This document shows positions 30,712 through 63,544 of a DNA stretch of 64,000 nt, piece by piece. This DNA is from an uncultured bacterium (GTDB lineage Bacteria > Babelota > Babeliae > Babelales > Babelaceae): the NCBI GenBank assembly GCA_963848965.1, contig CAWKFG010000001.1, positions 448,001-512,000 of the forward strand, read 5' to 3'. A model generated the notes under the pieces. That model ran no database searches, was not told where the DNA came from, and worked only from the letters and a program-made list of their open reading frames with translations. Both the position numbers and the translations under genes were made by a program. How positions within the stretch are numbered: position 1 is the first letter of the stretch; every line of letters begins with the position of its first letter.

Positions 30712-30834
30712 ATGAAGCAGAAGAAGAAGTCAAATTTTAAGCCTAAAAAGGTAAAAATAGTAAAGGTAAATAAAGCACAAGAGCCAACGATTCCTCGGGG
30801 AGAAAGATTTGGCAAGCGTTGGTTACCGTACTAA
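30712..30834 (+). CDS. Small basic 40-aa protein (unannotated)
   Basis: AAGGAG RBS, TTGCAA-18-TATGCT promoter-like sequence, MKQKKKSNFKPKKVKIVKVNKAQEPTIPRGERFGKRWLPY. Confidence 0.55.
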   Translation: MKQKKKSNFKPKKVKIVKVNKAQEPTIPRGERFGKRWLPY

Positions 30835-32000
30835 GATTGGAGAGCAAGAAGCCCTGGCAATTCTTTATGGCTTAAATATGCAAGTAAAGAACCTCCTCCA
30901 CTGGAGCAAAAACTTATGTCCTGTTCAAGGCCATAATGATATACTGCTGCAACCGACTCCCCCCCGCCAATCATACTATATGCAGTAGATTGTGCGATGG
31001 TTCGCAGCAGTATATGCATACTCTCAAGACTTACTGGTTGCTCTTCAATTCCCATACTCCCATTAAGAACAATGGTTCTTGCATGAGATATCTCTTGCGC
31101 GTAAAGTTCTAGCGTTTTTGGCCCTACACTGAGTCCAATACCATTTTCTGGAATAGCATCTGCAGCGACAATTTCTGTTGATCCTCCAAGAGTATTATGC
31201 GCTATAAGATAATCGAGAGGAAACAATAGTTTCACATGCAGTCTTTCTGCTTCTTTCATAATAGTATCTGCTTGTGTGATAAGAGAATCTTCAACAAGAG
31301 ATTGTCCTACAGGATAGCCTTGTGCTTTTAAAAAGGTAAATGACAGAGCGGGTCCTACTGCTAGTGTGTCAACAAAAGAAAGTAGTTCTTCTATAAGAGG
31401 AAGTTTATCTTTAACTTTGCCTCCTGCTAAAAATACAAGAAAGGGCTTGTGTCGATGTGTACGCAAATGCTCAAGGACAGAAAGCTCTTTTTCTACTAAA
31501 AGACCAATAGTTTTTCTCGTGCTTGGATAAAGTTGTGGTAATACTGTAATAGAGGTATCATTTCTGTGTAATAATCCAAAGGCATCATTTATATAATAGT
31601 CTGCTAAGCTAGCAAGGTCCTGTGCAAATGCATTTGTTGGTTGTTTTTCATGCGGCGAAAAGCGTAAATTCTCGAGCATAAGAAGTTCTCCAGGTTTGAG
31701 CTTTTGTGCGTAGCGCGCTGCTTCTTCTAATGTTGCAGCAAAAAAAACTGTATAAGCATGATCTTTAAACCATGGTATAAGATGTGCAGTAGAAAATCGC
31801 TCATCATAGCCAGTCGGACGATCTATATGAGTGCCAATAATAATACGAGCACCTTCGGCAATTAAAAGATCAAGCGTCGGTTGTACTGCTTTAAGACGAA
31901 AGTCATCTTCTATTCTGCCATTTTCTACAGGAACATTTAAATCTGCTCGTACAAACACGCGCTCGTTCTGAACAAACAGCAATGGAAGTTGAGAGTGCAT
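30831..32000 (-). CDS. pgk: Phosphoglycerate kinase
   Basis: VRADLNVP, LENLRF, YINDAFG..HR, GGKVKDKL, GGGES, SSGGG. Confidence 0.95.
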   Translation of the reverse strand: MHSQLPLLFVQNERVFVRADLNVPVENGRIEDDFRLKAVQPTLDLLIAEGARIIIGTHIDRPTGYDERFSTAHLIPWFKDHAYTVFFAATLEEAARYAQKLKPGELLMLENLRFSPHEKQPTNAFAQDLASLADYYINDAFGLLHRNDTSITVLPQLYPSTRKTIGLLVEKELSVLEHLRTHRHKPFLVFLAGGKVKDKLPLIEELLSFVDTLAVGPALSFTFLKAQGYPVGQSLVEDSLITQADTIMKEAERLHVKLLFPLDYLIAHNTLGGSTEIVAADAIPENGIGLSVGPKTLELYAQEISHARTIVLNGSMGIEEQPVSLESMHILLRTIAQSTAYSMIGGGESVAAVYHYGLEQDISFCSSGGGSLLAYLSHKELPGLLALQS

Positions 32001-32025
32001 AGGGTACCTCAAGAACTAATTTTTC

Positions 32026-33252
32026 TTAAGCTAACCCATTTTTAAGGACATGAGCAATAGTAATATGCTTAATTTTGTAAGCAGGCAGTAACGTTGCTAA
32101 AAAGCTCAGAATAACTGTTATACCAAGCACCAAAGCTATCATAGAAGTATCTATATAGATAGGTAAATGTGGTACATAGTAAATGTCAGGCAGCTGAATA
32201 AGTGGATAATTGCGTAAAAACCAACTAGCACCCAGAGCAAACAAAATGCCACAGGCAGATGCAGTTAGTGTAATGCAAAGGCCAACTATAACGAATATGC
32301 TCATAAGTGCTCTGTCTGCAATGCCCATACTTTTTAAAAGAGCAATATCTCCTTGTTTTTGAGTTACAAACATAAAAAGAAGAGAGACAATGTTCATGCT
32401 TGCTACTAATACTACTAGTGCAAGAATGATAAATAAGGCATATTTCTCAAGAGCAAGCGCAGATACGAGGGCAGGATAAAGATCTTTCCATGACGAAACT
32501 TCAAGAGGAAACCGCTGCCTAAGGAGCATAAGTGCTTTTTTCTCATCTGTGCTTGAAGAGAGTTTCACATTTACTTGCGAAATTCCTTGGGAAAATAATT
32601 CTGTAAAAAATGAGAGTGAACTTAAAATAACATATTCATCAAACTCATTAATACCAGTTTTAAAGAGAGCTGCAATACGAGCTTCTTGACTGTGAAGTGT
32701 TATTTTATTAGTAAGTATGTCGTCACCATATAAGAGTGTAAGAGAGTCTCCTACAGTAACGCCAAGTTGCTGAGCAAGCTTTTCTCCTATAAAGACACCT
32801 CTGTCTTGCAAAAGTATATCCCATGTTGAAGATGAGGTTGTTATCATGCTTTTAAGGGCACTTACCTGCGGTTCTAATACAGGATCTATGCCTTTAAGAA
32901 CACAGAGAGTGCTATTGTCTTTGTTTCCTTGAATAATTACTTGGGAAAGAGCGATAGGGCTTATACATGCTACGGGACCTTGAAATTCCGTATCGATAAC
33001 TTCTTTGAGTTTCTTAAAATCAATTGATTTTCCATGAGCAGTTATTATAACATCAGCATGAATACCTTTTAGTTTCTCATGAGTGGCATGCTCATAACCA
33101 TTCATGATTGCAGCAACAAGAGTAAGCGCAAAAGTGCTTAAAAGGATGCTTATAAAGCAGATTTTGATCATCACAGAAATGCTTTTTTCATCTTTTGAGC
33201 TTTTTAAAAAGCGCCAAGCAAGAAGTAAACTAATAGGCATATTTTTTCTCAC
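32026..33252 (-). CDS. LolC/LolE-type lipoprotein-releasing ABC transporter permease
   Basis: IMNGYE, periplasmic domain, SWKDLY..L..AL.LEK, LVASMNI, DIALLKSMG, IYYVPHLP. Confidence 0.85.
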   Translation of the reverse strand: MRKNMPISLLLAWRFLKSSKDEKSISVMIKICFISILLSTFALTLVAAIMNGYEHATHEKLKGIHADVIITAHGKSIDFKKLKEVIDTEFQGPVACISPIALSQVIIQGNKDNSTLCVLKGIDPVLEPQVSALKSMITTSSSTWDILLQDRGVFIGEKLAQQLGVTVGDSLTLLYGDDILTNKITLHSQEARIAALFKTGINEFDEYVILSSLSFFTELFSQGISQVNVKLSSSTDEKKALMLLRQRFPLEVSSWKDLYPALVSALALEKYALFIILALVVLVASMNIVSLLFMFVTQKQGDIALLKSMGIADRALMSIFVIVGLCITLTASACGILFALGASWFLRNYPLIQLPDIYYVPHLPIYIDTSMIALVLGITVILSFLATLLPAYKIKHITIAHVLKNGLA

Positions 33253-33308: not shown

Positions 33309-33776
33309 ATGGATATACGTATAGCTATCGGAGCAGATCACCGAGGATTTTTATTAAAAAGTTACCTTGTCTTGCAAAAGAAGATAGGTCCATTTTCTAT
33401 TGCTTGGGATGACGTAGGAACGTTTACTGAAGAACGAACAGATTACCCTCTTTTTTCACGTAAAGTAGTGCAACTTATACAGGATGGGTGGGTAGATCTT
33501 GGCATTATGGCATGTGGTAGTGGTATTGGTATGGCTATTGCAGCTAATCGCTTTCGTGGTATTTATGCAGGCCTTGTATGGAATGAAGAGGTTGCTCGTC
33601 AAGCTCGTCAAGATGATAATGTTAATGTTCTTGTACTACCTGCAGATTTTATCTCTTTAGAAGAAGGATATGCTATAGTACTTGCATGGCTTTCAAGCGA
33701 CTTTAAAGGTGGTCATTATCAAGAACGGCTTACACAACTTGATGATTTACAAAGAGAATCATGCTTATCACTGTGA
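33309..33776 (+). CDS. rpiB: Ribose-5-phosphate isomerase B
   Basis: IGADHRG, DYP, CGSGIGMAIAANR, F.GG....R. Confidence 0.93.
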   Translation: MDIRIAIGADHRGFLLKSYLVLQKKIGPFSIAWDDVGTFTEERTDYPLFSRKVVQLIQDGWVDLGIMACGSGIGMAIAANRFRGIYAGLVWNEEVARQARQDDNVNVLVLPADFISLEEGYAIVLAWLSSDFKGGHYQERLTQLDDLQRESCLSL

Positions 33777-33826: not shown

Positions 33827-36430
33827 TTATCCAAGTAATTCTTGCATTTCTGAGGCGGTGATAACAAGTTTATCTTCAAGCTGTTGTGCTACAAGCTTAA
33901 GCTGATCTTTATGCTCTTCAAGAAGAGCAGCAGCTTTTTCTGTAAGCTGTTCAACATGTTGTTCAATTGTTATCTTTTTACGTTCACGAAGTTCTTTAGA
34001 AAATGCTTTCTCAGTAAGGCCTTCAAAAGCTATTTTATTAAGTTCTGTAATGACCACCTGTTTTGATGGTCTGCTCAGAGCTGGCGCTACAGAATTTAAC
34101 AGAATACGTTGTGCTTGAGCTCCTGCAAGCTCGATGATACACAATTTTTCTATATCTTTTTCTGTTGCATACGTTGCAAATGAAGGATCTTCATAACTAA
34201 TAAGAGCACCTTGGAAAGTTCCTTTTTTTCTATCTACTGGTAAGATAGTTGCTTTTAAGAGCTTTGTTTGTGGTGCAAGTAACAAATGTGCAAGTGCTTT
34301 ACCTGCATAATGAGCAGCTAATATATGTTTTTCTGTAACATTTTGTATCTGTTCTTGAGTACGAATACGATGTATGAGTTCGTTAATACTTTGCTCAATG
34401 TGAACCGGCTTTACTACTTCGCGGTTGGTATGGGCAGTATTTAACGCTCTATTGATAAGAGACCGCAACTGTGTATAGGTGCATCCCTCTGTCTCTTGAG
34501 CGATACTAGCAGTGTTAAATTGAGAGCGCTTAATGCACCGCTCATGAAGTTCTTTATCTATAAAGAGCTCACGATCTTCGAGTGTTGGCTTCTCGCATAC
34601 AATAACGGAGCCAAGGCGATCTGCGCTTTCTAGTACTCTGTCGATACTACGTCTTTCCTGGGCTGTTGCCACTACAAACACATCTTTTTTGCTTTTTGCA
34701 AGACCACTAAAAGCATTCTTTATTTTGTTCCACACTGTGGCATCAACACCATCTTGTTTGCAAAGCCAATCAAGTTCATGCACTAATACAACGCATGGTG
34801 CTACTTTTTCTGCGTCCTTGAGTATGTCTTTAAGGTCTTTTGTAAGAAGATCTGCAGCTGCTACATCATACACTTTACAAACTGTTCGTTTATTCTGTGC
34901 TTTAAAGGTATCGGAAACGTCTTTTGCTACTGCGTGAACTAAATCGCGTGCAGTATCAAGAGGCCCTACTATCACATAGCCACGTCCAAGAAGAGTACCT
35001 GATCGGTCAATCATCTCTTTTTCTTTAAAGTAGGTAGCTATTTTTGAAAGGTGTTTTTTAGCATCTTCATTACCGGTAATAGGAAAGATAACTTTTGCTT
35101 CTTTTGCAGGAGAACCATCATCAAAGGATTCGCCTTTAAGATAGGCAAACGTTCTACGTGTTTGCTTTGAACCCCATCCTCCAAGATTCACAAGGTCTTC
35201 TTTCACTCGTGGCCAAAAGAGACTTGCGATGCTTAAAGTCAGAAGTGGTGTTTCGGTTTCAAATTTAATAAGGTTCCCTAAATGGAATGCTATAGAACCT
35301 ATAATACCGCCCTTATTTTCATAGGCATCTGCTGTTGATGATTTAAATGAAGCTGCCATATTATCCATTTTTTTGCTGAGCGTCTCAAATTTATCATTGA
35401 GATCTTTAACGGTTGGCTCAGCTTTAGGAGCTGCTGCCTCTGGTTGTTTAGGCTCTGCTTTTGGTACTTCTTGAGCAGGTACTGATTCTGCGGGTTTTGC
35501 TGTTTCTTTGGTAGCTGCTGGAATAGTTACTTTTGGTTCAGATTCTGCAGGTTTTGCTGTTTCTTTTGCTGACTCTGTAGGAGCTGTGCTTGGTTTATCT
35601 GGCGCTTTATCTTTTTTAATCGCATCTTTAGCAGCTTCGTTTGAGGCAATATGACCTGAGGTATCTTGTTTTTTCTTTGGTCGTGAACCGATAAATGCTT
35701 TAAGCTTATCAAGCCATGGCATCTTGAGTGTTTTAAGGGTATCTTCATGAAGTAAATAGAGGGCATACGTGCCTACAGCAGCATAAGGTAAAGCTCGTTT
35801 TGCAGCATCAAACATATGCCATTGAGTACCTGCTGTATCTATATCTTTTGCTACTCGATTAACAGATGTTATTCCTATATCTTTTATATATGAGTGTAAG
35901 GTATCAAGTTGTACTTGGCAGCTATCAAGCTCTGCTTGAAGAATTTCACCGTTAACAGGCAAAGAGCTGCGCACATGGCGTACTGCATCTAGTTCATTAA
36001 ATTCGCTCGTTTCCTTAAATTCTTTCAGAACAAGCTCATTTGTTCGAGCAATAAGTGCTTTATCAAGCTCTACAAGAGAGCGTACATTTACTGGTGTTTG
36101 GCCAATTGATTTCGTTTTATGGTCGAGGCTTCTTTCTATAAGCTCACGTAAATAAAGAATTTGTTCTCGTGCTGCTTTCTTATCAGTAACTTTTGCAGCT
36201 CCTGAATAAACCACTTGTCCTAATTCTTCAAGTGCAAAATCGAGTTCTAATAATTGTTGGCGTGTCTTTGTAAGAAGCTCTCTGTTATCTTGAAAATTTT
36301 CAGTAAGTTCATCAAATGATTCTTGATGATCCGTTGCTAGCAAGGAAGAGAATCCTGCAGTGCTTAACAAGAGAGTAAGTGCAAACTTTTTGGAAGATTG
36401 TAAGGGTATCATACCTCGACCTTTCGTCAA
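33827..36430 (-). CDS. FtsH-like AAA+/M41-fold protein, degenerate in both ATPase and protease motifs
   Basis: Walker A replaced by GPLDTARD, Walker B LVHELD, A.ETEGCT lid, AAHYAGKAL in place of HEAGH, LAG..A..IL. Confidence 0.75.
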   Translation of the reverse strand: MTKGRGMIPLQSSKKFALTLLLSTAGFSSLLATDHQESFDELTENFQDNRELLTKTRQQLLELDFALEELGQVVYSGAAKVTDKKAAREQILYLRELIERSLDHKTKSIGQTPVNVRSLVELDKALIARTNELVLKEFKETSEFNELDAVRHVRSSLPVNGEILQAELDSCQVQLDTLHSYIKDIGITSVNRVAKDIDTAGTQWHMFDAAKRALPYAAVGTYALYLLHEDTLKTLKMPWLDKLKAFIGSRPKKKQDTSGHIASNEAAKDAIKKDKAPDKPSTAPTESAKETAKPAESEPKVTIPAATKETAKPAESVPAQEVPKAEPKQPEAAAPKAEPTVKDLNDKFETLSKKMDNMAASFKSSTADAYENKGGIIGSIAFHLGNLIKFETETPLLTLSIASLFWPRVKEDLVNLGGWGSKQTRRTFAYLKGESFDDGSPAKEAKVIFPITGNEDAKKHLSKIATYFKEKEMIDRSGTLLGRGYVIVGPLDTARDLVHAVAKDVSDTFKAQNKRTVCKVYDVAAADLLTKDLKDILKDAEKVAPCVVLVHELDWLCKQDGVDATVWNKIKNAFSGLAKSKKDVFVVATAQERRSIDRVLESADRLGSVIVCEKPTLEDRELFIDKELHERCIKRSQFNTASIAQETEGCTYTQLRSLINRALNTAHTNREVVKPVHIEQSINELIHRIRTQEQIQNVTEKHILAAHYAGKALAHLLLAPQTKLLKATILPVDRKKGTFQGALISYEDPSFATYATEKDIEKLCIIELAGAQAQRILLNSVAPALSRPSKQVVITELNKIAFEGLTEKAFSKELRERKKITIEQHVEQLTEKAAALLEEHKDQLKLVAQQLEDKLVITASEMQELLG

Positions 36431-36492
36431 TCAATCGGTTTTTCTACTGTATTTTAGTATACAGGAGCTTGAAGCCCCTGTATACTTCTAGA

Positions 36493-38949
36493 TCACTTAC
36501 GGTATTCTTGAACAAGTGCTTGCAACTCTGAAGCACGAAGATTTGTGTGTGTCTCTAGTTCTTGTGCTATTTTTTCAAGAAGCACTTTTTGTTGTGTAAG
36601 AAGTTCTCGTACTTCTTGTTCATACCGCTTTACAAGTTTATAGGCTTCTTGATGAAGCTCTTTTTGTACCGATTTTGGAAGGTCTTTTTCAAGCATTCCA
36701 TCAAAAGCAATCTCTTTTGCATATTTAAGCGCTTTTTGTTTGTCTTGAGGATGATAACTATACCCTGTTGATCCAAGGAGTATCTCTTCTGCAATCGATC
36801 CAGCAAGTGCAACTTTGCAGAGCATCTCCTTATGAGTCTTTGTTTCTACATTAAGAACTTCTGCATCATTATAGGTAAAGAGTTTACCATATTTGCTTTG
36901 CTCTTGTTTATACAGTAAGTGCTGCGATTTTTCCCAATAACGTATCTCTTTAATAGTATTCCAGCGTCCTCTAATAGTAACAAGTTCAACTTTTTCAGGA
37001 ATATCAAGAAGTACATGTAATAAAGCATGACCTGCTAAGTGAGCAGAGATAAGTTTTCTCTCTTCTATGCTTAATGGAAGAGCATTTTTGAGTCTATAAA
37101 CGTGTTGATCAATACGATTTTGTAAGTGCTCTTGTGATACTGAGCGAGCAAGTGTACGAGCAACAAAGCGAGCGTTCTTTACAATGGTTTCAAGATCACC
37201 ATACGAACATCCCTGTGTTTGACGTGCTAGGGCATCAATATCTAGAGAGCTTGTATCGATAACATTATATTTAAATATAATGTCAAAGTATTTTTTACGA
37301 TTATGATAGTTTGGTTTCTCAAATCGTATAATGGTACCAAAACGACCAGGTTGTAAAAGAGCCGTATCAAGCTTTTCTGGTTGATTTGTTGCTCCAAGTA
37401 ATATTACTTGGTGGCGTGCATCATTTTCACTGTTGATACCGCTCATACCAGTAAGGAACTGCGTAAGAACATTTCCTCCCTCTTTGGTTTGCAAAGGAAG
37501 ATTATGAATCTCATCTATAAAGACAACGCAAGGAGCATTAAATTTAGCTTCATCAATGACGCTTTTAAGCCCTTCGCTATCCCACACAATTTCACTCCAT
37601 TTTACTTCTTTAAAGCCATATTTAGTTCCTATGCCTTTGGCTTCTAATGCATCATTAATGGTATCTCGTAATGCTCGTGCTAAAAATGTTTTTCCGCACC
37701 GAGAAGGACCTACTAAAAGAATTCCCTTTTCTAAACTTGTATTAGTACGATCATACATCTCTGGATCGGTAACATAGCGTACAAGATTACGAAGTTCATC
37801 AATTTGACCATCAAGCCCAACAAGGCGTGGATCATCGAGGGTAATATGATCGTGAGAAGTAGAATCTCTCTGTTCTACTTCGTAACCTTTAAGTTTATTC
37901 CACTGATTTCTTAAGGTTTGCTTTGTTGCCATATAACCAGGTATAGATTCTTTCTTAAGAAGTAAAAGGGGTACTCCTACTTCTAAAATTGTTTTGAGTA
38001 ATTTTCGGTTATTTTCTACAAGCTTAACACCTTTGCTGTACCATCCTGTACGAGATTTATCTCGGTTAATTTGTGTATTAAGCTCAACTTCATCAAGATT
38101 GAGCCGGTCCATTCGCTCTTTAAATACTTGTTCGCCTACGTTCACTTTGTTATCGTTGAGTGCATCTTTCTTTGCTTTTATATCATCTAAGCGTTCTTTC
38201 GCAGATAGTGGGCTATTATCTGTCCAATGATCTCCTAGCCACTTTTTTACTGTTTTTATAACAGGAATATCTTTTAACCAATCTTTTGGAGTGAAGTAGA
38301 GAGCTCCTCCTGCAAGAGCAGTAACAAGTGGGATGTTTTCTACAATTGTTGTAATATGGTATTTATTATTAATGTCATCGAGTTTACGAGCGAATCGATT
38401 GAGGTCTGTGAGTCCTGCATCTTTTGCTCGTGCTCGCAATTCTGTTATAACTTGGTTATTACTTTGAGAAAACGCGTTTAGAGCATCTAATGATGGTGTT
38501 GTTGATGGCTCTTTTGTCACAGGAGGGATATCAAAATGAATGAGTGTTTCAGGTTTAAATTTTTCGTTAATTGTTTCGGTGATATGTATTGCAAGGAACT
38601 TAACGGTGACGAGTCCGTGTCTTAAAGAGACTTCAGTAGGGGGTTCAGTAGTACACTGTGTCTGAAGACCACTTACTAATTTCTGGTGCTGCCGAATCCA
38701 ATCGCGAGTGTTTTCAATATTACTTACTTTGATAGAACCTTTGTTAAGAGCCTGTCCAAGATACTGTAATGTAGAGTTAATTTCTTCAAGGTGTAAAAGC
38801 TCTTTTTCTAATATACTATTAAGTTTTGTAGCTCGTTGAATTTCTTCTAATTGAGGTTCTGATGAAGGAGCGTCTGGTGAGGTAGCTATAAGTGGAGATG
38901 CTAGGCTCCATACCATAAGTGGGGTGAAAAAGCGCAATCGAAATTTCAT
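36493..38949 (-). CDS. FtsH-like AAA+ ATPase with inactive M41 domain
   Basis: KGILLVGPSRCGKTFLARA, APCVVFIDEI, GATN.PEKLD.ALLQPGRF, SAHLAGHAL (catalytic Glu lost), LAGSIAEE. Confidence 0.85.
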   Translation of the reverse strand: MKFRLRFFTPLMVWSLASPLIATSPDAPSSEPQLEEIQRATKLNSILEKELLHLEEINSTLQYLGQALNKGSIKVSNIENTRDWIRQHQKLVSGLQTQCTTEPPTEVSLRHGLVTVKFLAIHITETINEKFKPETLIHFDIPPVTKEPSTTPSLDALNAFSQSNNQVITELRARAKDAGLTDLNRFARKLDDINNKYHITTIVENIPLVTALAGGALYFTPKDWLKDIPVIKTVKKWLGDHWTDNSPLSAKERLDDIKAKKDALNDNKVNVGEQVFKERMDRLNLDEVELNTQINRDKSRTGWYSKGVKLVENNRKLLKTILEVGVPLLLLKKESIPGYMATKQTLRNQWNKLKGYEVEQRDSTSHDHITLDDPRLVGLDGQIDELRNLVRYVTDPEMYDRTNTSLEKGILLVGPSRCGKTFLARALRDTINDALEAKGIGTKYGFKEVKWSEIVWDSEGLKSVIDEAKFNAPCVVFIDEIHNLPLQTKEGGNVLTQFLTGMSGINSENDARHQVILLGATNQPEKLDTALLQPGRFGTIIRFEKPNYHNRKKYFDIIFKYNVIDTSSLDIDALARQTQGCSYGDLETIVKNARFVARTLARSVSQEHLQNRIDQHVYRLKNALPLSIEERKLISAHLAGHALLHVLLDIPEKVELVTIRGRWNTIKEIRYWEKSQHLLYKQEQSKYGKLFTYNDAEVLNVETKTHKEMLCKVALAGSIAEEILLGSTGYSYHPQDKQKALKYAKEIAFDGMLEKDLPKSVQKELHQEAYKLVKRYEQEVRELLTQQKVLLEKIAQELETHTNLRASELQALVQEYRK

Positions 38950-39110: not shown

Positions 39111-40607
39111 ATGAATCGTTTATTTTATATAATTGTGGTTATTAGTGCTTTGGGTGGCGCTGCTATGTATTGGTATCAAAAAAAAGAGGCTCGTGTTCAT
39201 GCAACATTTGACATGAAAAAGGCGCTCGAGAAGAAAAATATAGTCCCTGTAGCTGTTATTGGATCGGGGCCAGCTGGCTTAAGTGCAGCCCTCTATACTG
39301 CGCGGGCTTCCTTGTACACTGTGGTATTTCAAGGAAAGACGCCGGGAGGGCAACTAACAGGTACTACCTACGTTGAAAACTGGCCAGGAACACCAAAGTT
39401 GCTTGGATCACAGCTTATTGATATTAATAAAAAGCAGGCGGAAAAATTTGGAGCTCTTATGGTAAATGATACTATAGAGTCAGTCGATTTTTCTTCGTGG
39501 CCTTATGCACTTAAAACAGAAGATGGGCATGAGCTCTTTGCTCTTGCAGTTGTTATAGCTACAGGAGCAAATCCTCGATTGCTGAGTGATACTAAACCAG
39601 TACCTGGAGAAAAGGAGTACTGGGGTTATGGGGTAACTACCTGTGCTGTATGCGACGCTCCATTTTATAAAGGTAAAAAAGTTGTTGTTGTAGGAGGCGG
39701 TGATTCTGCAGTTGAAGAAGCTATGCTTCTTTCTACCTATGCAAATGAAGTAACTATGCTTGTACGTGGTGCATCGATGCGAGCGGCACCTGCCATGAAA
39801 GATAGATTAAAGGCAATAAATAAAATTAAGGTGATGTATAACACTGAGATTACTCAAATTATAGGGGAAGGTAAGGCAGTTACTGCGGTAGAATTGCTGA
39901 ATACTAAAGATAATACAAAATCTACCCTTGCTGTTGATGGAGTATTTTTAGCAATTGGGCATAAGCCAAATAGTGATATCTTTAAAAAGTACCTTAAGCT
40001 AGATCAGTTAGGATATATTGAGATGCATGATCGTTCACAAGCTACCTCATTACCAGGAGTATTCGCAGCAGGTGATGTTACTGATAAGGTATATAGACAG
40101 GCAGGGGTTGCAGCTGGTGATGGTATTAAAGCAGCACTTGATGCTAATGCGTTCTTACAACACAACGGATTTAATGAGACTGTTGCTCGTCAACTTGAAA
40201 AGAACTATTATGATCCACATCAGGATCTGCCTGCGGTAAAGCTTGAACATATTGTAACAAACAAGGATTTTGACGCACTTGCAAAACTCCCAGAGCCTCT
40301 CATTGTTGATGTCGGTGCAGATTATTGTCCAACATGTAAAGTACTACTTCCTGTAGTAGAAACTGTTGCTGCTCAAATGCAAGGAAAAGCACACTTTAGG
40401 CAAATAGATTTAGGTGATAATCCTACAGAGTTGGTAAAGCGGTTTGATCTAAAGGCTATACCTGCATTACTTATCTTTAAAAATGGGCAGCTTGTTTCCC
40501 GTTATGATCAGCAATTGTTTACTAAACGTGAGCTGTATAACCTTGTAAATCAACTTATTATGGGTGAAGAAGAGAAGAAAGAAGAGAAAAAGGCGGCATC
40601 ATTATGA
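39111..40607 (+). CDS. trxB: Thioredoxin reductase fused to C-terminal thioredoxin, with N-terminal hydrophobic anchor
   Basis: IGSGPAG, ENWPG, CAVCD, VGGGDSA.EEA, FAAGDV.D..YRQA; C-terminal A.YCPTC...IPALLIFKNG. Confidence 0.92.
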   Translation: MNRLFYIIVVISALGGAAMYWYQKKEARVHATFDMKKALEKKNIVPVAVIGSGPAGLSAALYTARASLYTVVFQGKTPGGQLTGTTYVENWPGTPKLLGSQLIDINKKQAEKFGALMVNDTIESVDFSSWPYALKTEDGHELFALAVVIATGANPRLLSDTKPVPGEKEYWGYGVTTCAVCDAPFYKGKKVVVVGGGDSAVEEAMLLSTYANEVTMLVRGASMRAAPAMKDRLKAINKIKVMYNTEITQIIGEGKAVTAVELLNTKDNTKSTLAVDGVFLAIGHKPNSDIFKKYLKLDQLGYIEMHDRSQATSLPGVFAAGDVTDKVYRQAGVAAGDGIKAALDANAFLQHNGFNETVARQLEKNYYDPHQDLPAVKLEHIVTNKDFDALAKLPEPLIVDVGADYCPTCKVLLPVVETVAAQMQGKAHFRQIDLGDNPTELVKRFDLKAIPALLIFKNGQLVSRYDQQLFTKRELYNLVNQLIMGEEEKKEEKKAASL

Positions 40608-40622
40608 TGCCGCCCTCATGTT

Positions 40623-43124
40623 CTATTGAAGTGCTGGTAAGCCCTGTTGTGCACGTGTAGCATTGATTTGCGATAAGTTTGGTACACTACCCATAGGTGG
40701 AGCTGGTAGTTTTAGGATGAGCCGCATTTGATTAAGAACATCCTGCGATATAGTTGGATATTGCGATACAATCGTGCCAAGAGCAAATAAGTTTACTGGA
40801 GTATACTTTGTTAAGTCCCTAGCTACAGGAACTGCTTCTATATAATAGAGAGCCTGCATTTGAGGATTATTGAAGTCTCGTCCTATAGAAGCTGCAAGGC
40901 TTCTTCTTACTATATCAAGAGCAGCATCAGAAAGTGTTGGATTAGCTGCTTTCATCTGCTTAATTTGAGCTTCTATAGCATTAGGCGTTAATTGTGGCCC
41001 AGCAACGAATTCGTCAATATCATTTGCTTTAGATGGTACTTTACCTTTACAGCGCGCAACTGCAGCGTCAAGTTTGGTTTTAGTAGCATTAAGACCACTA
41101 ATTTGCTGTTGTGCTTTGGTTATATTAGCTTTATTTTCTGTATCGAATGCTGCATCTTTTTTATCAATATCAGCAATCTTTTTATCAAGATCGGCTATTT
41201 GATTATTAAGAGATTCGACTTCCTTTTCACGTTTGTCAATCTCTTTATTGGCATCGATAAGCATCTGTTTTGCAGATTCTGTACAAGCTTTACCCCATTT
41301 CTCTAAAGCTGTTTGGGTTAGTTTTACATAGACACCATAGCTTGTATCTTGAGAAAGGTCTCCAGTAGCAGGTGCTGTTGTACCTGCCTTGAGAGCATCA
41401 GCAGCTGATTTAAGAGAATCTGAGGCTGCTTTTTGTGAAGCAGCTGCGGCTGCGCTAGGAGATACAGCACCGATTGCACTAATTCTTACGGTAGCAGAGA
41501 ACTCTTTAAAGATATCAACAGATACTTGGAAGCTTAACCCTTTTGTAGAAAGGTTAATAGTAGTTCCGGATTTGATACCGTCAAAGATATCGAGTTCTAC
41601 TGTTGCATCAATAAAGAGACTAGCAAGAAGCTTCTTAGGATCTACCTGAATTTGCACAACAGCACCATCATCGGCAGTACCAGCTTTTCTATCTGGGCCA
41701 GCGCCTGTTATAGACAGAGGTCCTATCTTGAATGCTTGGATATAACCAAGAGCGTTGATACCTTCTTCATCTACTCGTACAGCAAGGCCAACATCAGTTT
41801 TAAGAATATCGGCAACAACTTCAACTTCAATACCTTTTTTGTATATTTTATCTCCAAAGAAGGTATCTTTTGGCACAATATACACTTTGAATGTCTTGAA
41901 GCCGATATGAGGAAGATCTTTGGCAATGCCAGAGATATCTTTCTTTGTCACTCGTTTAATAATGTCTGCAGCAAAGGCAACAATATCACTTAAATAGAGA
42001 CCGCCTTCAAGGCTGCTGACAAGCATAAGGTCTGGTGAGGTAGAAAAGTCTATACAGCCAAGAACAGATAATGTTTTTTCACCAAAGCCGATAGCACCCT
42101 GTAAACAGAACCCTGAAAGGGCCAAGAGTCCACCTGATGCAGTAGCAGCAGCAAGGTCCATATCTGCACGAACACCAAATTGGCCAATACGAAGTCCATT
42201 AAGGCCAAAAGCATTTTCATAAAATCCTTGCATCCAGCCGGTAATATAAAGCTTTGGAGGAGCGGTTTTTGCTCGTATTTCACCAAAGAAGAGTAAAGGA
42301 GCAGTTTGAGTAGGAATTTTAATACTTAAGCCAGTTTTAATAGCAATGTCAAGTGTTGGAACACCAGGTGTTGCTTCTGTAATAGCCAACGTAAGAACGA
42401 GTCCTGTAGTTTCTCCTACTTTACCAAGGCTAATTTTACCAGGAAGCGTGATAGACAAGAATGAGCCACTTATTTGTGGATTAATAGTTCCTTGTACGAT
42501 AATTTCTGTCATATCTTTGCCGATGGCACGCAATAGTTTTTCAATTTCACCGCCTACTTTAACTCCAGCAACGAGCGTGAATCCTGGTTTTACTCGAATA
42601 TTCCAATCTGGATCCCAATAACCTTCATTAGAATCGTCTTTTGAGAAGATGAAGGCTGCTTTAGTAAGCTGCAATACATCAAGTGCTTTAAGTTTGCTGT
42701 CGATTTGAGAGAGTTTAAATCCTTGTCCAAGACCGACAATAACACTCAGTTTTTGTCCGCCACCCTGCAGGTTAACGATACGAACTTTTACATCAACAGT
42801 TACAGTTGCAATAGTTGCTTGTCCTGTAATGATAGTACCAAAGTCAGTAGGGCTTGTGGCTGATTCAGGATCTCGTTTAACCGGAACATTTTTTGTAATG
42901 GTAGGTTTAACGATAGATACCTTTTTCAAAAAGTTAGTAACACCACTTGGTAATGGAATCTTTTTAATAAAAGAAAGATCACCAATAACTATAGGCTTAC
43001 CCTGCGATGCAGTAGCAGTAATAGCAGCACCTTCATCAGATTCTGTCGTTTGGCTATAGAGTGGTGCTATAAGGAGGCTGCTTGTAAAAAGAAGGATAAG
43101 AATGAATTTATTTTGTATTTTCAT
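40623..43124 (-). CDS. Large exported beta-rich protein with coiled-coil region
   Basis: 833 aa, signal peptide, roughly 500 aa of alternating Gly/hydrophobic strands, then heptad repeats. Confidence 0.75.
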   Translation of the reverse strand: MKIQNKFILILLFTSSLLIAPLYSQTTESDEGAAITATASQGKPIVIGDLSFIKKIPLPSGVTNFLKKVSIVKPTITKNVPVKRDPESATSPTDFGTIITGQATIATVTVDVKVRIVNLQGGGQKLSVIVGLGQGFKLSQIDSKLKALDVLQLTKAAFIFSKDDSNEGYWDPDWNIRVKPGFTLVAGVKVGGEIEKLLRAIGKDMTEIIVQGTINPQISGSFLSITLPGKISLGKVGETTGLVLTLAITEATPGVPTLDIAIKTGLSIKIPTQTAPLLFFGEIRAKTAPPKLYITGWMQGFYENAFGLNGLRIGQFGVRADMDLAAATASGGLLALSGFCLQGAIGFGEKTLSVLGCIDFSTSPDLMLVSSLEGGLYLSDIVAFAADIIKRVTKKDISGIAKDLPHIGFKTFKVYIVPKDTFFGDKIYKKGIEVEVVADILKTDVGLAVRVDEEGINALGYIQAFKIGPLSITGAGPDRKAGTADDGAVVQIQVDPKKLLASLFIDATVELDIFDGIKSGTTINLSTKGLSFQVSVDIFKEFSATVRISAIGAVSPSAAAAASQKAASDSLKSAADALKAGTTAPATGDLSQDTSYGVYVKLTQTALEKWGKACTESAKQMLIDANKEIDKREKEVESLNNQIADLDKKIADIDKKDAAFDTENKANITKAQQQISGLNATKTKLDAAVARCKGKVPSKANDIDEFVAGPQLTPNAIEAQIKQMKAANPTLSDAALDIVRRSLAASIGRDFNNPQMQALYYIEAVPVARDLTKYTPVNLFALGTIVSQYPTISQDVLNQMRLILKLPAPPMGSVPNLSQINATRAQQGLPALQ

Positions 43125-43133
43125 GGTAGTCCT

Positions 43134-43796
43134 TTAAAGCTTAATATTTTTAGCAGCTGCTTCGATGATAGACTTGGCACTTCCAGCAATGTCTTTAAAG
43201 TTGATTTGAAGATCAAAATCGATCTTTTTACCTGCTATAATTGCAGTGAGACCAACTTTAGGAAGTTTACCTTTTTTAATATCAGCAAGATTCATATCAA
43301 ATTCCATACGCTGAATATCAAATCCGCCACTAATAGCTTTACCAACTACTTGACCAAGAACGCTGGTAGCAGTAGCCATACCACGAACAGCTTCAAGGCC
43401 AGCTTTACCGGTTTCTCGAGTAGCAACAAGACCTGCACGAGCAGCTACAAGTCCAGCTTTTTCTGTTTGTAGAGCAGTTCTACGAGGATCAAGGCGCTGC
43501 AGCTGCATAGCAGCATCTAGTACACCTTTTGCTACAGCATAGGCCGCTTTTTTTCCGGCCCATTCGGTACCTAATGGTACTACGTCAATGCACTCACCTA
43601 CTTTTTCAAAAGCTTTCTTTAAATCATTTGCTCGATCTTCAAACCAATTGCCAACTGTTTGAAAACCTTCTTTAATACCAGAACCGACTTTTTCAAAGCC
43701 ACTCTTAATATCATCAAAGACATTACTATAGAGCATGTGGTAACTAATACCAGCAGCAATACAGACTCCAAGTGCTATGAGTAGATGTTTTTTCAT
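43134..43796 (-). CDS. Exported amphipathic/coiled-coil protein, probably co-transcribed with the 833-aa gene
   Basis: 220 aa, signal peptide, 11-mer amphipathic repeats (GFEKVG..IK), 9-bp gap to next gene. Confidence 0.75.
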   Translation of the reverse strand: MKKHLLIALGVCIAAGISYHMLYSNVFDDIKSGFEKVGSGIKEGFQTVGNWFEDRANDLKKAFEKVGECIDVVPLGTEWAGKKAAYAVAKGVLDAAMQLQRLDPRRTALQTEKAGLVAARAGLVATRETGKAGLEAVRGMATATSVLGQVVGKAISGGFDIQRMEFDMNLADIKKGKLPKVGLTAIIAGKKIDFDLQINFKDIAGSAKSIIEAAAKNIKL

Positions 43797-45201: not shown

Positions 45202-45864
45202 TTAGTTATGCACCCTAAGGTGGCACAGAGATGCAGGCCAGCGCTTACCACAGAGCTCATTGATCCACTTTTCAGTTCCAGGGTTTCTAAATCCATGCTC
45301 TCTAATTACAATACCAGGATGTATGCCGAAGTAGTTAAAGAGAACTGACATGAGCATACCAATAAATTGAAGATCATTGAAAAAGTGAGCATTGTCTTTT
45401 TGTTGAGTAATCTGATTTAAAGCTTTTACAGCTTTAGTAATGTCTTCAGCTGCATCGAATTCCTTCTTTATTGAAGGACCAATAGCAGGATAGAGAAATT
45501 CAAAGAACTCGTCCTCTTTGTTAATTACATCATATTGTTTGTGTAAAAGTTGTGCGAGATTATCAACAAATTGGCGATTAGAGAAAAATGGAGCATTTTC
45601 TTTTTGCCGTGCTAGCTCTTTTAGAGCGTTCATAGCTTCAGTATATCCTTCCTGGTATGTTGGATGTTGTTCTAGAATATTTTTTATCTGACTCTCAAGT
45701 CTATAAAGCTCTGACCCCGTTATTGTCTTCTCTAATTCCTTAAAAACGTCAGCAGGTAATAAACCTAACAAAGATCCTTCATAAGGACGCTGAGCTTCTG
45801 GTAAGTGTGCTGCAAAGCTTGTTGTTGCCATCGATAGCAAGAGAATTACATATATTTTTAGCAT
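45202..45864 (-). CDS. Exported hypothetical protein with F-box-like start and internal helical duplication
   Basis: LLPADVFKEL; two copies of A..AL....QK.NA.FF....F...L...L. Confidence 0.65.
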   Translation of the reverse strand: MLKIYVILLLSMATTSFAAHLPEAQRPYEGSLLGLLPADVFKELEKTITGSELYRLESQIKNILEQHPTYQEGYTEAMNALKELARQKENAPFFSNRQFVDNLAQLLHKQYDVINKEDEFFEFLYPAIGPSIKKEFDAAEDITKAVKALNQITQQKDNAHFFNDLQFIGMLMSVLFNYFGIHPGIVIREHGFRNPGTEKWINELCGKRWPASLCHLRVHN

Positions 45865-61600: not shown

Positions 61601-63544
61601 TTATTCACTAAAGCACGCTGCTATTGTTGCTAGTGTATTCTGCCATTCTTGGGCTTCAGGCATATGGTTTGCAAGTGCTTGAAGCTGTTCATTATCTTTT
61701 ACAACAAGACCAAGAAGGCGAAGCATTATTCTTAGATATCCTGCTTCTTTAGCAAGAAGTACAAGGTCGATTGAGGGTTTTACACCAACTTTTAAAAGAG
61801 CGTTTACCAGTGTGAGGTTTCCCTTTTCTACTGCTAATCTTAAGAGGGATTCTCCTTCATTCTGTACCTTTTGAAGTAAAATTCCATAAGTATTAATTAA
61901 GAAAGCAGCACCATCAAGAAAGCCGTATTCTAGAGCATAGTCAAGTGCTGTATAACCATACTCATCTTTCAAATTTAAATAAAGAGGGGAGAGATTACGC
62001 TCTTTTAAAAAGTTAAGAACTTCTTGGTGACCAAATGTACATGCGAGGCAGGTAAGCATAAGTGTTGATTGGCTATGTTCAGGGTACGTATCTTTTTGCT
62101 CAAAGTTTAAGGATGCAAATGTTAAAGGATTTTGAAGATATTGTTTTACGTGTTCTTGTTTATACATCTCTAAAAGCCTCAATACAAAGGGATTGTGTGC
62201 TATCTTAAAAATGTTCTCTCCTTGGTCATTTTTGATCTGACAATCAGTTCCGTGCTTTAGCAAGCGTACTACAATATCTTGACGATCTTTTTCTACTGCT
62301 ATCATAAGAGCTGTTTGTTTGCTTTTCAATGACTGAGAATTAGTCCAAGCTTGATGCTTAAGGAGAAGCGATACAGTATTACAATGGCCATTTTGTACTG
62401 CAAACATAAGAGCAGTAAAATGATCAGAATCTTGATGGTCGATATCTGTATGTTTACTAAGTAAAGCTTCAATAGCCTCGTTATTTCCATATATAGCAGC
62501 ATACATAAGGGCAGTTCTACCCTTTTGATCTCGTTCATTAACATCTGAACCAGCTTCAAGAAGCTTAAAAAAGAGTGTTCTGTTGTTCAACTGTATTACT
62601 TTTATAAGAGGAGTTAAGCCATCAACGTCGCGAACGTTAAGATTGGCTTTTGCTGCTATAAGTTTGCTTGCTATAGCAGTATTATTTTTCTGTAAAGAGC
62701 ACGTTAAAGGAGAATAGCAATTTTTTGAAGGATCTATATGAGCAGGTAATGTTAACCCATTAAAAACATTATACAGCTGCATGCAGTTCACATCAGCTCC
62801 ATGTTCTAGTAAGAGTGCAACAAGAGCCTCGTTCTCTCTGTGAGCAGCGATGGTAAGCGCAGTCCAATTGCACATACCAGGTTCATTAATATCTGCCTTT
62901 GCTTCAAGTAATAGTTTCACGAGCTCTATTTTTTGGTGCCCTACTGCGATAGTAAGAGGCGTATTTCCATTCAAGCTCTTTTTATTAACATTAGCTCGAG
63001 CCTTAATAAGTATAGTTACTACTTCTTTATGTCCTTTTCTTACTGCTTTCATTAAGGCTGTTTCTCCTTCGTCATCTTGAGCATCAATCTGCGCGTTGTT
63101 TAGAAGAAGAAAAAGTACCATCTCTGGAAAACCTGCTTCTGCTGCAAGAGTTAGAGCTCTTCTGCCAGAACAGCCGGGTGCATTTATTTCTGCACCATTC
63201 TCTAAAAGAAGCTGTATAAGCTGAATCGACCGTGTAAAAACAGCTGAATGCAACGGTCTGTCTGTGCCCCATAAGGTACAATTTGCCTGAGCTCCTTTTT
63301 GTATAAGCATACGAGCAAGATCTGTATGTTTATAGCACACTGCAAGATTGAGTGCATTATTTAAAGACTCTTGTTTATTAGTACTTTTATCTATAAGAAG
63401 AAAGAGTGCTTTATGGTTGAAAGGAGTTTCACGAATAAGCTTTAGCAGCTGTTGGTAATTATCTTGCTCTTTTTCCATTGCTTGTAAAGAACTGGTGGCA
63501 ATAAGTACGCTAGAGAAAAAAAGAGAAAGCACTAATTTTTGCAT
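61601..63544 (-). CDS. Exported ankyrin repeat protein
   Basis: Many G.TALM.A repeats; signal peptide ending LQA-MEK. Confidence 0.93.
   Translation of the reverse strand: MQKLVLSLFFSSVLIATSSLQAMEKEQDNYQQLLKLIRETPFNHKALFLLIDKSTNKQESLNNALNLAVCYKHTDLARMLIQKGAQANCTLWGTDRPLHSAVFTRSIQLIQLLLENGAEINAPGCSGRRALTLAAEAGFPEMVLFLLLNNAQIDAQDDEGETALMKAVRKGHKEVVTILIKARANVNKKSLNGNTPLTIAVGHQKIELVKLLLEAKADINEPGMCNWTALTIAAHRENEALVALLLEHGADVNCMQLYNVFNGLTLPAHIDPSKNCYSPLTCSLQKNNTAIASKLIAAKANLNVRDVDGLTPLIKVIQLNNRTLFFKLLEAGSDVNERDQKGRTALMYAAIYGNNEAIEALLSKHTDIDHQDSDHFTALMFAVQNGHCNTVSLLLKHQAWTNSQSLKSKQTALMIAVEKDRQDIVVRLLKHGTDCQIKNDQGENIFKIAHNPFVLRLLEMYKQEHVKQYLQNPLTFASLNFEQKDTYPEHSQSTLMLTCLACTFGHQEVLNFLKERNLSPLYLNLKDEYGYTALDYALEYGFLDGAAFLINTYGILLQKVQNEGESLLRLAVEKGNLTLVNALLKVGVKPSIDLVLLAKEAGYLRIMLRLLGLVVKDNEQLQALANHMPEAQEWQNTLATIAACFSE

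Follow-up and report, generated by a model that had tools for sequence, protein, structure and literature searches.

Pseudo-protease relatives of FtsH have been described chiefly in plastids, where they were taken up into a motor for protein import. Such proteins, called FtsHi, are defined in PMC8197885 by a zinc motif that is mutated or missing and an AAA+ domain that is retained, and in the Orf2971-FtsHi motor of Chlamydomonas a conserved pore-loop aromatic residue is described as lining the central pore (preprint 10.1101/2024.09.02.610899). There are bacterial precedents for an FtsH that lacks the protease site: PMC8197885 mentions, for Prochlorococcus marinus SS120, one FtsH that is presumably inactive and, for Firmicutes, paralogues of FtsH and FtsHi; in the passages that name them, these are single mentions that describe no partner, no N-domain and no loss of a pore loop. 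Here we analyze two neighboring genes, A and B, in a 64,000-nucleotide stretch of DNA (the window) from an uncultured bacterium of the Dependentiae (GenBank assembly GCA_963848965.1, contig CAWKFG010000001.1, positions 448,001 to 512,000). Both encode FtsH-like proteins that lack the protease motif. A first-pass annotation of the window had proposed that the pair is a heteromeric unfoldase that pulls proteins across a membrane. The reading that we favor, tentatively, is that A and B are a protease-dead, FtsH-derived membrane ATPase and its pseudo-ATPase partner, the latter kept by selection, and that they do not work by canonical threading.

Like bacterial FtsH, the two proteins run from a hydrophobic N-terminus through a predicted extracytoplasmic domain and a hydrophobic span to AAA+ and then M41, and A keeps the Walker A and B motifs, sensor-1 and the Arg finger, of which B keeps only the Arg. 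They differ from it in having neither HExxH nor a canonical pore-1 loop, in the replacement of FtsH_ext in A by a helical domain of about 170 amino acids (aa) and a juxtamembrane module of about 145 aa, and in scores that reach at most about a quarter of the cut-off of the FtsH model TIGR01241. A and B fall within the published definition of FtsHi and, like the plastid Ycf2 (Orf2971)-FtsHi complex as it has been described, combine paralogous subunits of unequal activity; chains of that complex are also close structure matches to A. The plastid motor as described, however, is an active threading ATPase with a pore-loop aromatic, whereas A and B lack the loop, and no TIC/TOC-like partner is known or seen for them. 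A further parallel is offered by Torsin with LAP1 or LULL1, in which a membrane-tethered complex is made of an ATPase and a homologous, non-nucleotide-binding partner that can supply an Arg to the site of its neighbor. Full-length B likewise keeps such an Arg, but A has an Arg finger of its own (R536), the relationship of Torsin to A and B is only that between AAA+ proteins, and B lacks the AAA module in many lineages.

Results

The gene pair

In the open reading frame (ORF) listing of the window, A and B are adjacent and co-oriented on the minus strand, as had been annotated (818 and 867 aa). Gene A (P0001; 36493..38949) starts with ATG and encodes 818 aa, an FtsH-like AAA+ protein that is protease-dead and has intact ATPase motifs. 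Gene B (P0123; 33827..36412) encodes an A paralogue of 861 aa, both pseudo-ATPase and protease-dead, when it is read from the ATG at 36412 (the public gene call); an alternative TTG start at 36430 gives 867 aa (33827-36430). Depending on the start of B, the spacer between the genes is 62-80 nucleotides (nt). Every motif quoted in the first-pass annotation was found in the translations: GPSRCGKT, FIDE, ALLQPGRF and HLAGH in A, and GPLDTARD, VHELD and HYAGK in B. HExxH is gone from both proteins, its place being taken by HLAGH in A and HYAGK in B, and the earlier view of an active and an inactive copy is supported: the upstream copy has a complete set of ATPase residues, and the downstream copy is a pseudo-ATPase. 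Two features had escaped that description, namely an Arg in B that aligns with the Arg finger of A and the lack of a canonical pore-1 loop in both proteins.

The AAA and M41-like domains claimed for both copies were recovered with Pfam: A matched AAA (79 bits), AAA_lid_3 (27.7 bits) and Peptidase_M41 (27.2 bits, just below the cut-off of 29.9), and B matched AAA (38 bits) and Peptidase_M41 (30.4 bits). Neither reached the cut-off of 600 bits of the NCBIfam FtsH model TIGR01241, A scoring 159.5 bits and B 87.3 bits. In BLASTP, A and B were 25% identical over 477 aa (E 1e-40), and their N-terminal regions were 25% identical over 228 aa (E 7e-9). These similarities, far beyond chance, indicate that A and B are paralogues along their full length.

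A structure model of A made with AlphaFold2 (AF2) from a 57-sequence alignment had a mean predicted local distance difference test score (pLDDT) of 85.1 and a predicted template modeling score of 0.77, with the AAA+ module at about 380-617 and the M41-like domain at 628-817. Structure searches were run with the whole model of A, and their matches cover the AAA+/M41 portion, not the N-terminal third. The top Foldseek match was FtsH 3kds (template modeling (TM) score 0.81, E 2.9e-22), followed by Ycf2-FtsHi, YME1 and AFG3L2; the FtsHi chain 8xku_E gave a TM score of 0.72. With VIA-align, three top chains were tied: the Orf2971-FtsHi chain 8xks_A (Z 22.3, 252 residues aligned), FtsH 7tdo_A (Z 22.0, 401 aligned) and Ycf2-FtsHi 8xkv_B (Z 21.5, 412 aligned). 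The M41-like domain matched 2di4_B over residues 626-818 (Z 18.7). A has, then, the classical-clade AAA+ and M41 fold of bacterial FtsH.

The pore-1 loop

The stretch that separates the two Walker motifs reads SGSDFIEVFVGVGAARVRD in canonical FtsH, with EVFVGVG at the pore-1 loop. The corresponding stretch in A is KWSEIVWDSEGLKSVID, with VWDSEG at the loop; it is 2-4 residues shorter and has no aromatic-hydrophobic-Gly sequence. In the AF2 model, residues 457-460 are a short turn between two helices. Among the listed sequences, 36 of A and 12 of B, this stretch is not conserved, and B has no aromatic residue at the pore-1 position. W451 is found in 23 of the 57 A-family members. The loss of the loop tracks the A/B family, because an FtsH-like paralogue in genome G026 that bears HEAGH keeps the pore-loop sequence KYIG. 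The MDGF-type stretch after helix 3, which we take to be an inter-subunit signal, has Phe in none of the 57 A proteins (0/57), Leu, Ile or Val being found instead.

These results bear on the proposal of a heterohexameric unfoldase, built from A and B, by which polypeptides would be drawn across the membrane or extracted from it, a bacterial analogue of the Ycf2/Orf2971-FtsHi import motor. The domain logic of that proposal fits, since both systems combine AAA+ with an M41-like pseudo-protease domain and mix active with degenerate subunits; FtsHi chains are among the best structure matches, the ATPase residues of A are invariant, and a Trp lies near the pore-loop position in 24/57 members. It is opposed by a pore-1 loop that is short and unconserved in A and absent in B, where the chloroplast motor as described keeps its aromatic, and by the missing Phe of the MDGF-type stretch. 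In addition, the AAA or M41 module of B is missing in 10 of 14 relatives, which a subunit of a motor ring should not tolerate, no translocon partner is evident nearby, and the pull of a cytoplasmic ring would be directed inward, not toward export of a secretome. Because A and B lack the pore loop that the chloroplast motor keeps, we did not adopt the import-motor explanation, which we regard as unlikely. The claim of an unfoldase pulling proteins across a membrane, for which a pore loop that grips the substrate is required, is weakened by the replacement of the pore-1 loop with a shorter, unconserved turn, and no link was found to the Sec-signal proteins of the window, which had been suggested as its substrates.

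Conservation of the A family

A is a member of a Dependentiae-specific family. Source databases list its homologues under 'AAA family ATPase [Candidatus Dependentiae bacterium]' or 'ATP-dependent Zn protease', of which the latter is a misleading label for proteins without a zinc site. Profile A3, built from only the N-terminal region, matched 165 of the 251 sampled genomes of the phylum. It was common in families f1 (36/39), f18 (70/75), f12 (16/16), f5 (13/14) and f10 (10/10), and was not found in the searched families f11 (0/33), f6 (0/12), f16 (0/7), f19 (0/5) and f3 (0/4). Against 1.84 billion representative sequences, A3 found at least 514 clusters (50% identity) at E up to 1e-3. Among the best 150 representatives, aligned with hmmalign, one had HExxH, about 33 were B-type and 5 had no AAA module.

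In the alignment of 57 A proteins, K420, D479, E480, N522 and R536 were invariant (57/57). At the HExxH positions, by contrast with this strict conservation of the ATPase, the Glu was present in a single protein, the first His in 42 and the second in 30. The first-pass annotation had asked whether orthologues mostly keep HExxH; they do not, with one case in 57 A-family members and one in the 150 representatives. Taken together, these data indicate that A is a constrained ATPase whose protease site has been lost family-wide.

No paper describing the A family was found in the literature searched, and the article text of Yeoh et al. (PMC4776705) mentions FtsH, AAA and M41 nowhere. Deeg et al. 2019 (PMC6561590), in the portion concerned, count M41 among the 'secreted proteinases' of Chromulinavorax destructans, and this entry may be an A homologue taken at face value. 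A role of A and B in anti-phage defense was considered and rejected: in PADLOC, A gave only partial matches to generic AAA proteins (IetA 43.4 bits, TRIP13 17.4 bits) and B gave none, and the NCBIfam model IteA scored 37.1 bits against a cut-off of 510. A Cys conserved before Walker B (APC, 49/57) was likewise set aside as a redox clue, being present in CDC48 as well.

The G026 paralogue is a separate observation. This FtsH-like protein of 510 aa (L060:6987-8519, plus strand) has no N-domain and no obvious membrane spans, carries the KYIG pore loop and HEAGH, scores 103.6 bits with Pfam M41, and in the tree is placed between canonical FtsH and the clade of A and B. These features suggest a soluble relative of FtsH that is protease-competent.

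Linkage, architecture and constraint of B

We compared 37 loci from 35 relatives, 33 of which carry an A gene. In G015 there is only a B-like gene, on a contig of 5.2 kb, and in G026 the 510-aa paralogue stands in place of A. Of the 33 relatives with an A gene, 14 have a B-like gene downstream of it in the same orientation (10 found by BLASTP and 4 more by hidden Markov model); G022 has a further, marginal match (E 1.8e-3). The spacer from A to B is 29-122 nt in our genome and 13 relatives and 2.35 kb in G020. Since B is missing beside A in the remaining 19 relatives (18 if G022 is counted), A evidently can work without B.

B is full length in our genome, G014, G002, G031 and G015, and in G020 it is split into two ORFs. 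It consists of the N-domain and AAA without M41 in G024, G003, G009, G001, G021 and G032, of the N-domain and an M41-like domain without an AAA core in G004 and G011, and of the N-domain only in G012 and G017. The M41 module, the AAA module or both are missing from 10 of the 14 neighboring B-like genes, and the N-terminal module is the only constant part. The earlier expectation that the pair is conserved holds for A, whose family is widespread; it does not hold for B, with a B-like neighbor in 14 of 33 relatives and reduced forms in 10 of these 14. The B orthologue of G020 (L054:11620-13904, plus strand) is made of two overlapping ORFs of 493 and 279 aa, which may reflect a frameshift, a sequencing error or a real split.

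In trees that held only sequences from Dependentiae genomes, A and B together were separated from the relatives' canonical FtsH (FastTree 0.946; 99.9 in the Shimodaira-Hasegawa-like approximate likelihood ratio test, SH-aLRT), and A and B appear to have arisen within Dependentiae. Nine B sequences formed a monophyletic main clade (FastTree 0.998, SH-aLRT 100). B had the A protein of G035 as its sister, with a support of just 72.1. Two B-like genes, those of G031 and G032, fell outside the main B clade.

The constraint on B was gauged by protein identity to the closest orthologue, domain by domain, with the disordered linker as reference. Overall, A is 85% identical to its orthologue (P0004) and B is 77% identical to its own (P0124). 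The values for A and B, respectively, were 86% and 84% in the N-domain, 86% and 91% in the membrane span, 70% and 85% in the juxtamembrane region (for B its second part, residues 335-435), 96% and 78% in AAA+, and 88% and 79% in the M41-like domain; the linker, which applies to B, was 33% identical with 31 gaps. Folded domains of B at 78-91% against a linker at 33% argue that the folded parts are held by selection, and these values point to purifying selection on B and not to decay. The degenerate copy is therefore not evolving neutrally, a possibility that the first-pass annotation had left standing, and intact ORFs persist: full-length B ORFs of 734-867 aa are retained between genomes at 21-34% identity. 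B-type representatives also have pseudo-motifs in common, namely GPLDxxK, xELD or xDLD, and HYAGK. Patristic distances to four matched genomes in the AAA region were 1.36-2.08 for B, 0.44-1.07 for A and 0.23-0.43 for canonical FtsH. A homologous-protein search with B (P0002) returned only B itself and one orthologue, the search words probably having been occupied by the low-complexity linker, and a search of genome contigs with A (P0001) for the DNA of a close relative brought up none.

We then counted the Arg at the Arg-finger position in those B-type representatives in which both Walker A and Walker B are degenerate. With an M41 domain, 9 keep the Arg and 6 have lost it; without M41, 1 keeps it and 9 have lost it. 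This distribution is consistent with full-length B being a member of the ring that would complete the ATP site of A.

An alternative is that A is a lone homo-oligomer and B either an independent membrane protein or a tandem duplicate in slow decay. The many relatives with an A locus and no B-like neighbor speak for it, as do the repeated truncation of B and an AAA region that evolves 1.6-4 times faster in B than in A. Decay or independence is hard to square, on the other hand, with the gap in identity between folded domains and linker, with the recurrence of B-specific pseudo-motifs, with an adjacency (29-122 nt spacers) that outlasts divergence to 17-34% identity, and with the retention of the Arg in full-length B. 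We consider this alternative rather improbable.

The canonical FtsH of the genome

The genome (1.73 Mb in 5 contigs, 88.7% complete) has one canonical FtsH, at C1:306097-307806, which scores 746.5 bits with TIGR01241 and carries GEPGNGKT, the FVGVG pore loop, HEAGH and FtsH_ext (46.6 bits). The separate canonical ftsH whose presence was to be confirmed thus exists as a single gene. It lies on the same contig about 178 kb from A and B, with no genomic linkage to them, and a canonical FtsH accompanies A in every A-bearing genome examined. FtsH_ext (PF06480) had no match in A or B at E up to 1, and in this genome the family-specific N-domain is carried only by A and B.

It could be proposed that A and B modulate or scaffold canonical FtsH or another membrane quality-control system, for example as protease-dead holdases. 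Common ancestry, a probably common location in the membrane, the M41-like plate and the ATPase retained after catalysis was lost, and the constant company of a canonical FtsH speak for such a role. The periplasmic and juxtamembrane parts, however, are unrelated to FtsH_ext, which makes mixed rings of A/B and FtsH unlikely; the ftsH gene is distant and unlinked; and holdase action normally still uses the pore loops. We give this proposal a slim chance.

As to other AAA proteins, ORFs of 1177 and 1085 aa outside the window (G000 C4:140001-143531, minus strand, and C5:25681-28935, plus strand) have one AAA module each at residues of about 550-780 and are otherwise unexplained. Further AAA-containing ORFs, of 508-824 aa, occur in the genome.

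Parts and topology of A and B

A begins with a hydrophobic region (h-region) that resembles a signal peptide or an N-terminal anchor (residues 1-27; 38869..38949, minus strand, as for all parts of both genes), modeled as a helix at 2-17 with low confidence at 18-29. Residues 28-198 (38356..38868) are the family-specific, all-helical N-domain, predicted to be periplasmic, with AF2 helices at 31-70, 78-101, 106-128, 154-176 and 182-197. This domain matched neither Pfam nor FtsH_ext, an ESM Atlas search with residues 28-360 gave no usable match, and profile A3 places it only at the N-terminus of FtsH-like proteins. Residues 199-219 (38293..38355) are a moderately hydrophobic, predicted membrane span, modeled as one helix and followed by a Lys-rich flank. 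The helical juxtamembrane module (residues 220-365; 37855..38292), with AF2 helices across 222-354, is absent from canonical FtsH, in which the second transmembrane segment (108-126) runs to Walker A at 204. AAA+ and its lid occupy residues 366-617 (37099..37854), with Walker A GPSRCGKT at 414-421, Walker B D479-E480, sensor-1 N522 and the Arg finger R536. Residues 618-818 (36496..37098) form the M41-like pseudo-protease domain, in which HLAGH stands where FtsH has HExxH; the domain is identified by the Pfam and VIA-align matches given above.

The AF2 model of B (pLDDT 69.9) has the helix pattern of A plus a disordered linker. Residues 28-222 (35747..36331) comprise an N-domain homologous to that of A by BLASTP and AF2 and a weakly hydrophobic span at 201-222. 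The juxtamembrane region (residues 223-435; 35108..35746) contains the linker, rich in Pro, Ala, Glu and Lys (about 268-334), and pLDDT is below 50 for residues 239-334. In the degenerate AAA+ and lid (residues 436-680; 34373..35107), Walker A reads GPLDTARD, Walker B VHELD and sensor-1 is Gln; the Arg at the Arg-finger position lies in SADRLG. The M41-like pseudo-protease domain with HYAGK spans residues 681-861 (33830..34372; Pfam M41 30.4 bits).

An N-terminal h-region is present in all sequences compared (36/36 in the A list and 12/12 B). Hydropathy was measured as the Kyte-Doolittle 19-residue mean (KD19). A segment whose KD19 reaches 1.2 or more lies in the interior of 31/36 A and 5/12 B sequences; the value is 1.43 in our A and about 1.0 in our B. 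Of the earlier description, the signal-like N-terminus and the long helical region stand, and the internal hydrophobic segment proves to be only moderate. The order of parts, like that of FtsH, and the Lys-rich flank after the span point to an N-domain outside and an AAA+ domain in the cytoplasm, from which we infer an extracytoplasmic N-domain and a cytoplasmic AAA+ domain. A two-span topology as in FtsH is no more than possible, because the N-terminus resembles a signal peptide. The topology of B is uncertain because of the low hydropathy of its span, and its anchoring, judged by hydropathy alone, is doubtful.

Export of A and B through Sec, with a site of action in the periplasm, vesicles or host, is very improbable: the signal-peptide-like N-terminus of all members, the weak internal segment, of B especially, and the M41, a possible A homologue, listed among secreted proteinases in Chromulinavorax destructans (PMC6561590) agree with it, but an ATPase with invariant catalytic residues requires ATP, the layout is that of FtsH with a Lys-rich flank C-terminal to the span, and A and B are not a secreted peptidase because the protease site is dead.

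Neighboring genes

An inverted repeat was read directly from the sequence of the A-B spacer, just past the stop codon of A (36456..36486, minus strand); its 10-bp arms match perfectly and enclose a loop of 11 nt. No T-run comes after it, it did not score as a terminator, and it may serve in processing or attenuation.

The neighbors of A and B are housekeeping genes in conserved order. RpiB (33309-33776, plus strand) is present in 25 of the 37 loci and PGK (30831-32012, minus strand) in 19. An FtsX/MacB-type permease of 408 aa (MacB_PCD and FtsX, LolC/E-like; 32026-33252, minus strand) is found within 8 kb of A in 26/37 loci, with no ABC ATPase gene adjoining it within the window. A thioredoxin-reductase/thioredoxin fusion of 498 aa (39111-40607, plus strand) has CAVC in its reductase part, CPTC in its thioredoxin part and an N-terminal hydrophobic helix. 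It stands head-to-head with A across families, in 28/37 loci, with a gap of 56-505 bp, and this arrangement is a lead toward a possible functional link with A, though not evidence for it. No translocon partner was evident near A and B. An upstream signal-peptide protein of 833 aa (P0003), which belongs to no Pfam family, was rejected as a part of the unit, as none of the 37 loci has a homologue.

Many of the 51 non-overlapping ORFs of the window have a signal-peptide-like hydrophobic N-terminus, for example those at 40623-43124, 43134-43796, 45202-45864 and 61601-63544, all on the minus strand. This agrees with a cultured Dependentiae relative, for which signal peptides are reported on 44% of the coding sequences (PMC6561590, in the portion that gives this figure).

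Discussion

The data establish the ancestry and fold of A and B, the loss of the protease site, the conserved ATPase residues of A, the degeneration of B under constraint and the linkage of the two genes; topology, ring formation, contact between A and B and a mode of action other than threading are deduced from them. In the reading that we favor, A is most likely a membrane-anchored ATPase that still hydrolyzes ATP. Its ring would be held together by the AAA+ and M41-like domains, as in FtsH, and each subunit would run from a signal-like N-terminus through an outside helical domain, one span and the juxtamembrane module to a cytoplasmic AAA+/pseudo-protease portion. B would be an old duplicate of A that can neither bind nor hydrolyze ATP and is kept by selection as A's partner. 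Where B is full length, it would take a place in the ring as a non-catalytic subunit, and the Arg that it has kept could complete the ATP site of A. In all lineages B would join A through the shared N-terminal, membrane and juxtamembrane module, and the N-terminal module is the presumed core of the interaction because it is the only part that B always keeps. The canonical pore-1 loop is gone from both proteins, so the complex would not thread in the manner of FtsH or of Ycf2-FtsHi. Movements of the ring driven by ATP would more likely serve as a switch or scaffold that acts on the portions in the membrane and periplasm, for instance when proteins of the envelope are assembled or maintained.

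Several points weigh against this reading. The Trp near the pore-loop position, W456, is one position before the canonical pore aromatic, and A may grip substrates through it in a non-canonical way. The internal span is only moderately hydrophobic, reaching the KD19 threshold in fewer than half of the B sequences, and B is absent next to A in 19 of 33 relatives. Finally, the idea of a switch or scaffold rests on the absence of the pore loop, not on positive evidence.

A more elaborate version of the favored reading, which we hold to be doubtful, would make A and B the cytoplasmic engine and the regulatory subunit of a hitherto unrecognized, Dependentiae-specific envelope machine. Its ring, without pore loops, would use ATP hydrolysis to move a hexameric periplasmic tower of helices by mechanotransmission, not by threading, and the machine would service the Sec-dependent secretome, which is unusually large in these intracellular bacteria. 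Such a machine may be under thiol-redox control, because the thioredoxin-reductase/thioredoxin fusion is so often head-to-head with A.

A and B appear to be an independent and much older, bacterial case of the pseudo-protease FtsH relatives hitherto known mainly from plastids. The loss of the protease together with strict retention of the ATPase and loss of the gripping loop is unusual for classical-clade AAA+ proteins, and raises the question of what role is played by an FtsH ring that can neither cut nor, apparently, thread. The reduction series of B, from full length through the loss of M41 and the loss of AAA to the N-domain only, is a natural case of stepwise pseudo-enzyme evolution. In Dependentiae, which live as obligate intracellular parasites of protists and offer few tractable systems, a conserved, lineage-specific membrane ATPase is a plausible handle on the biology of the envelope.

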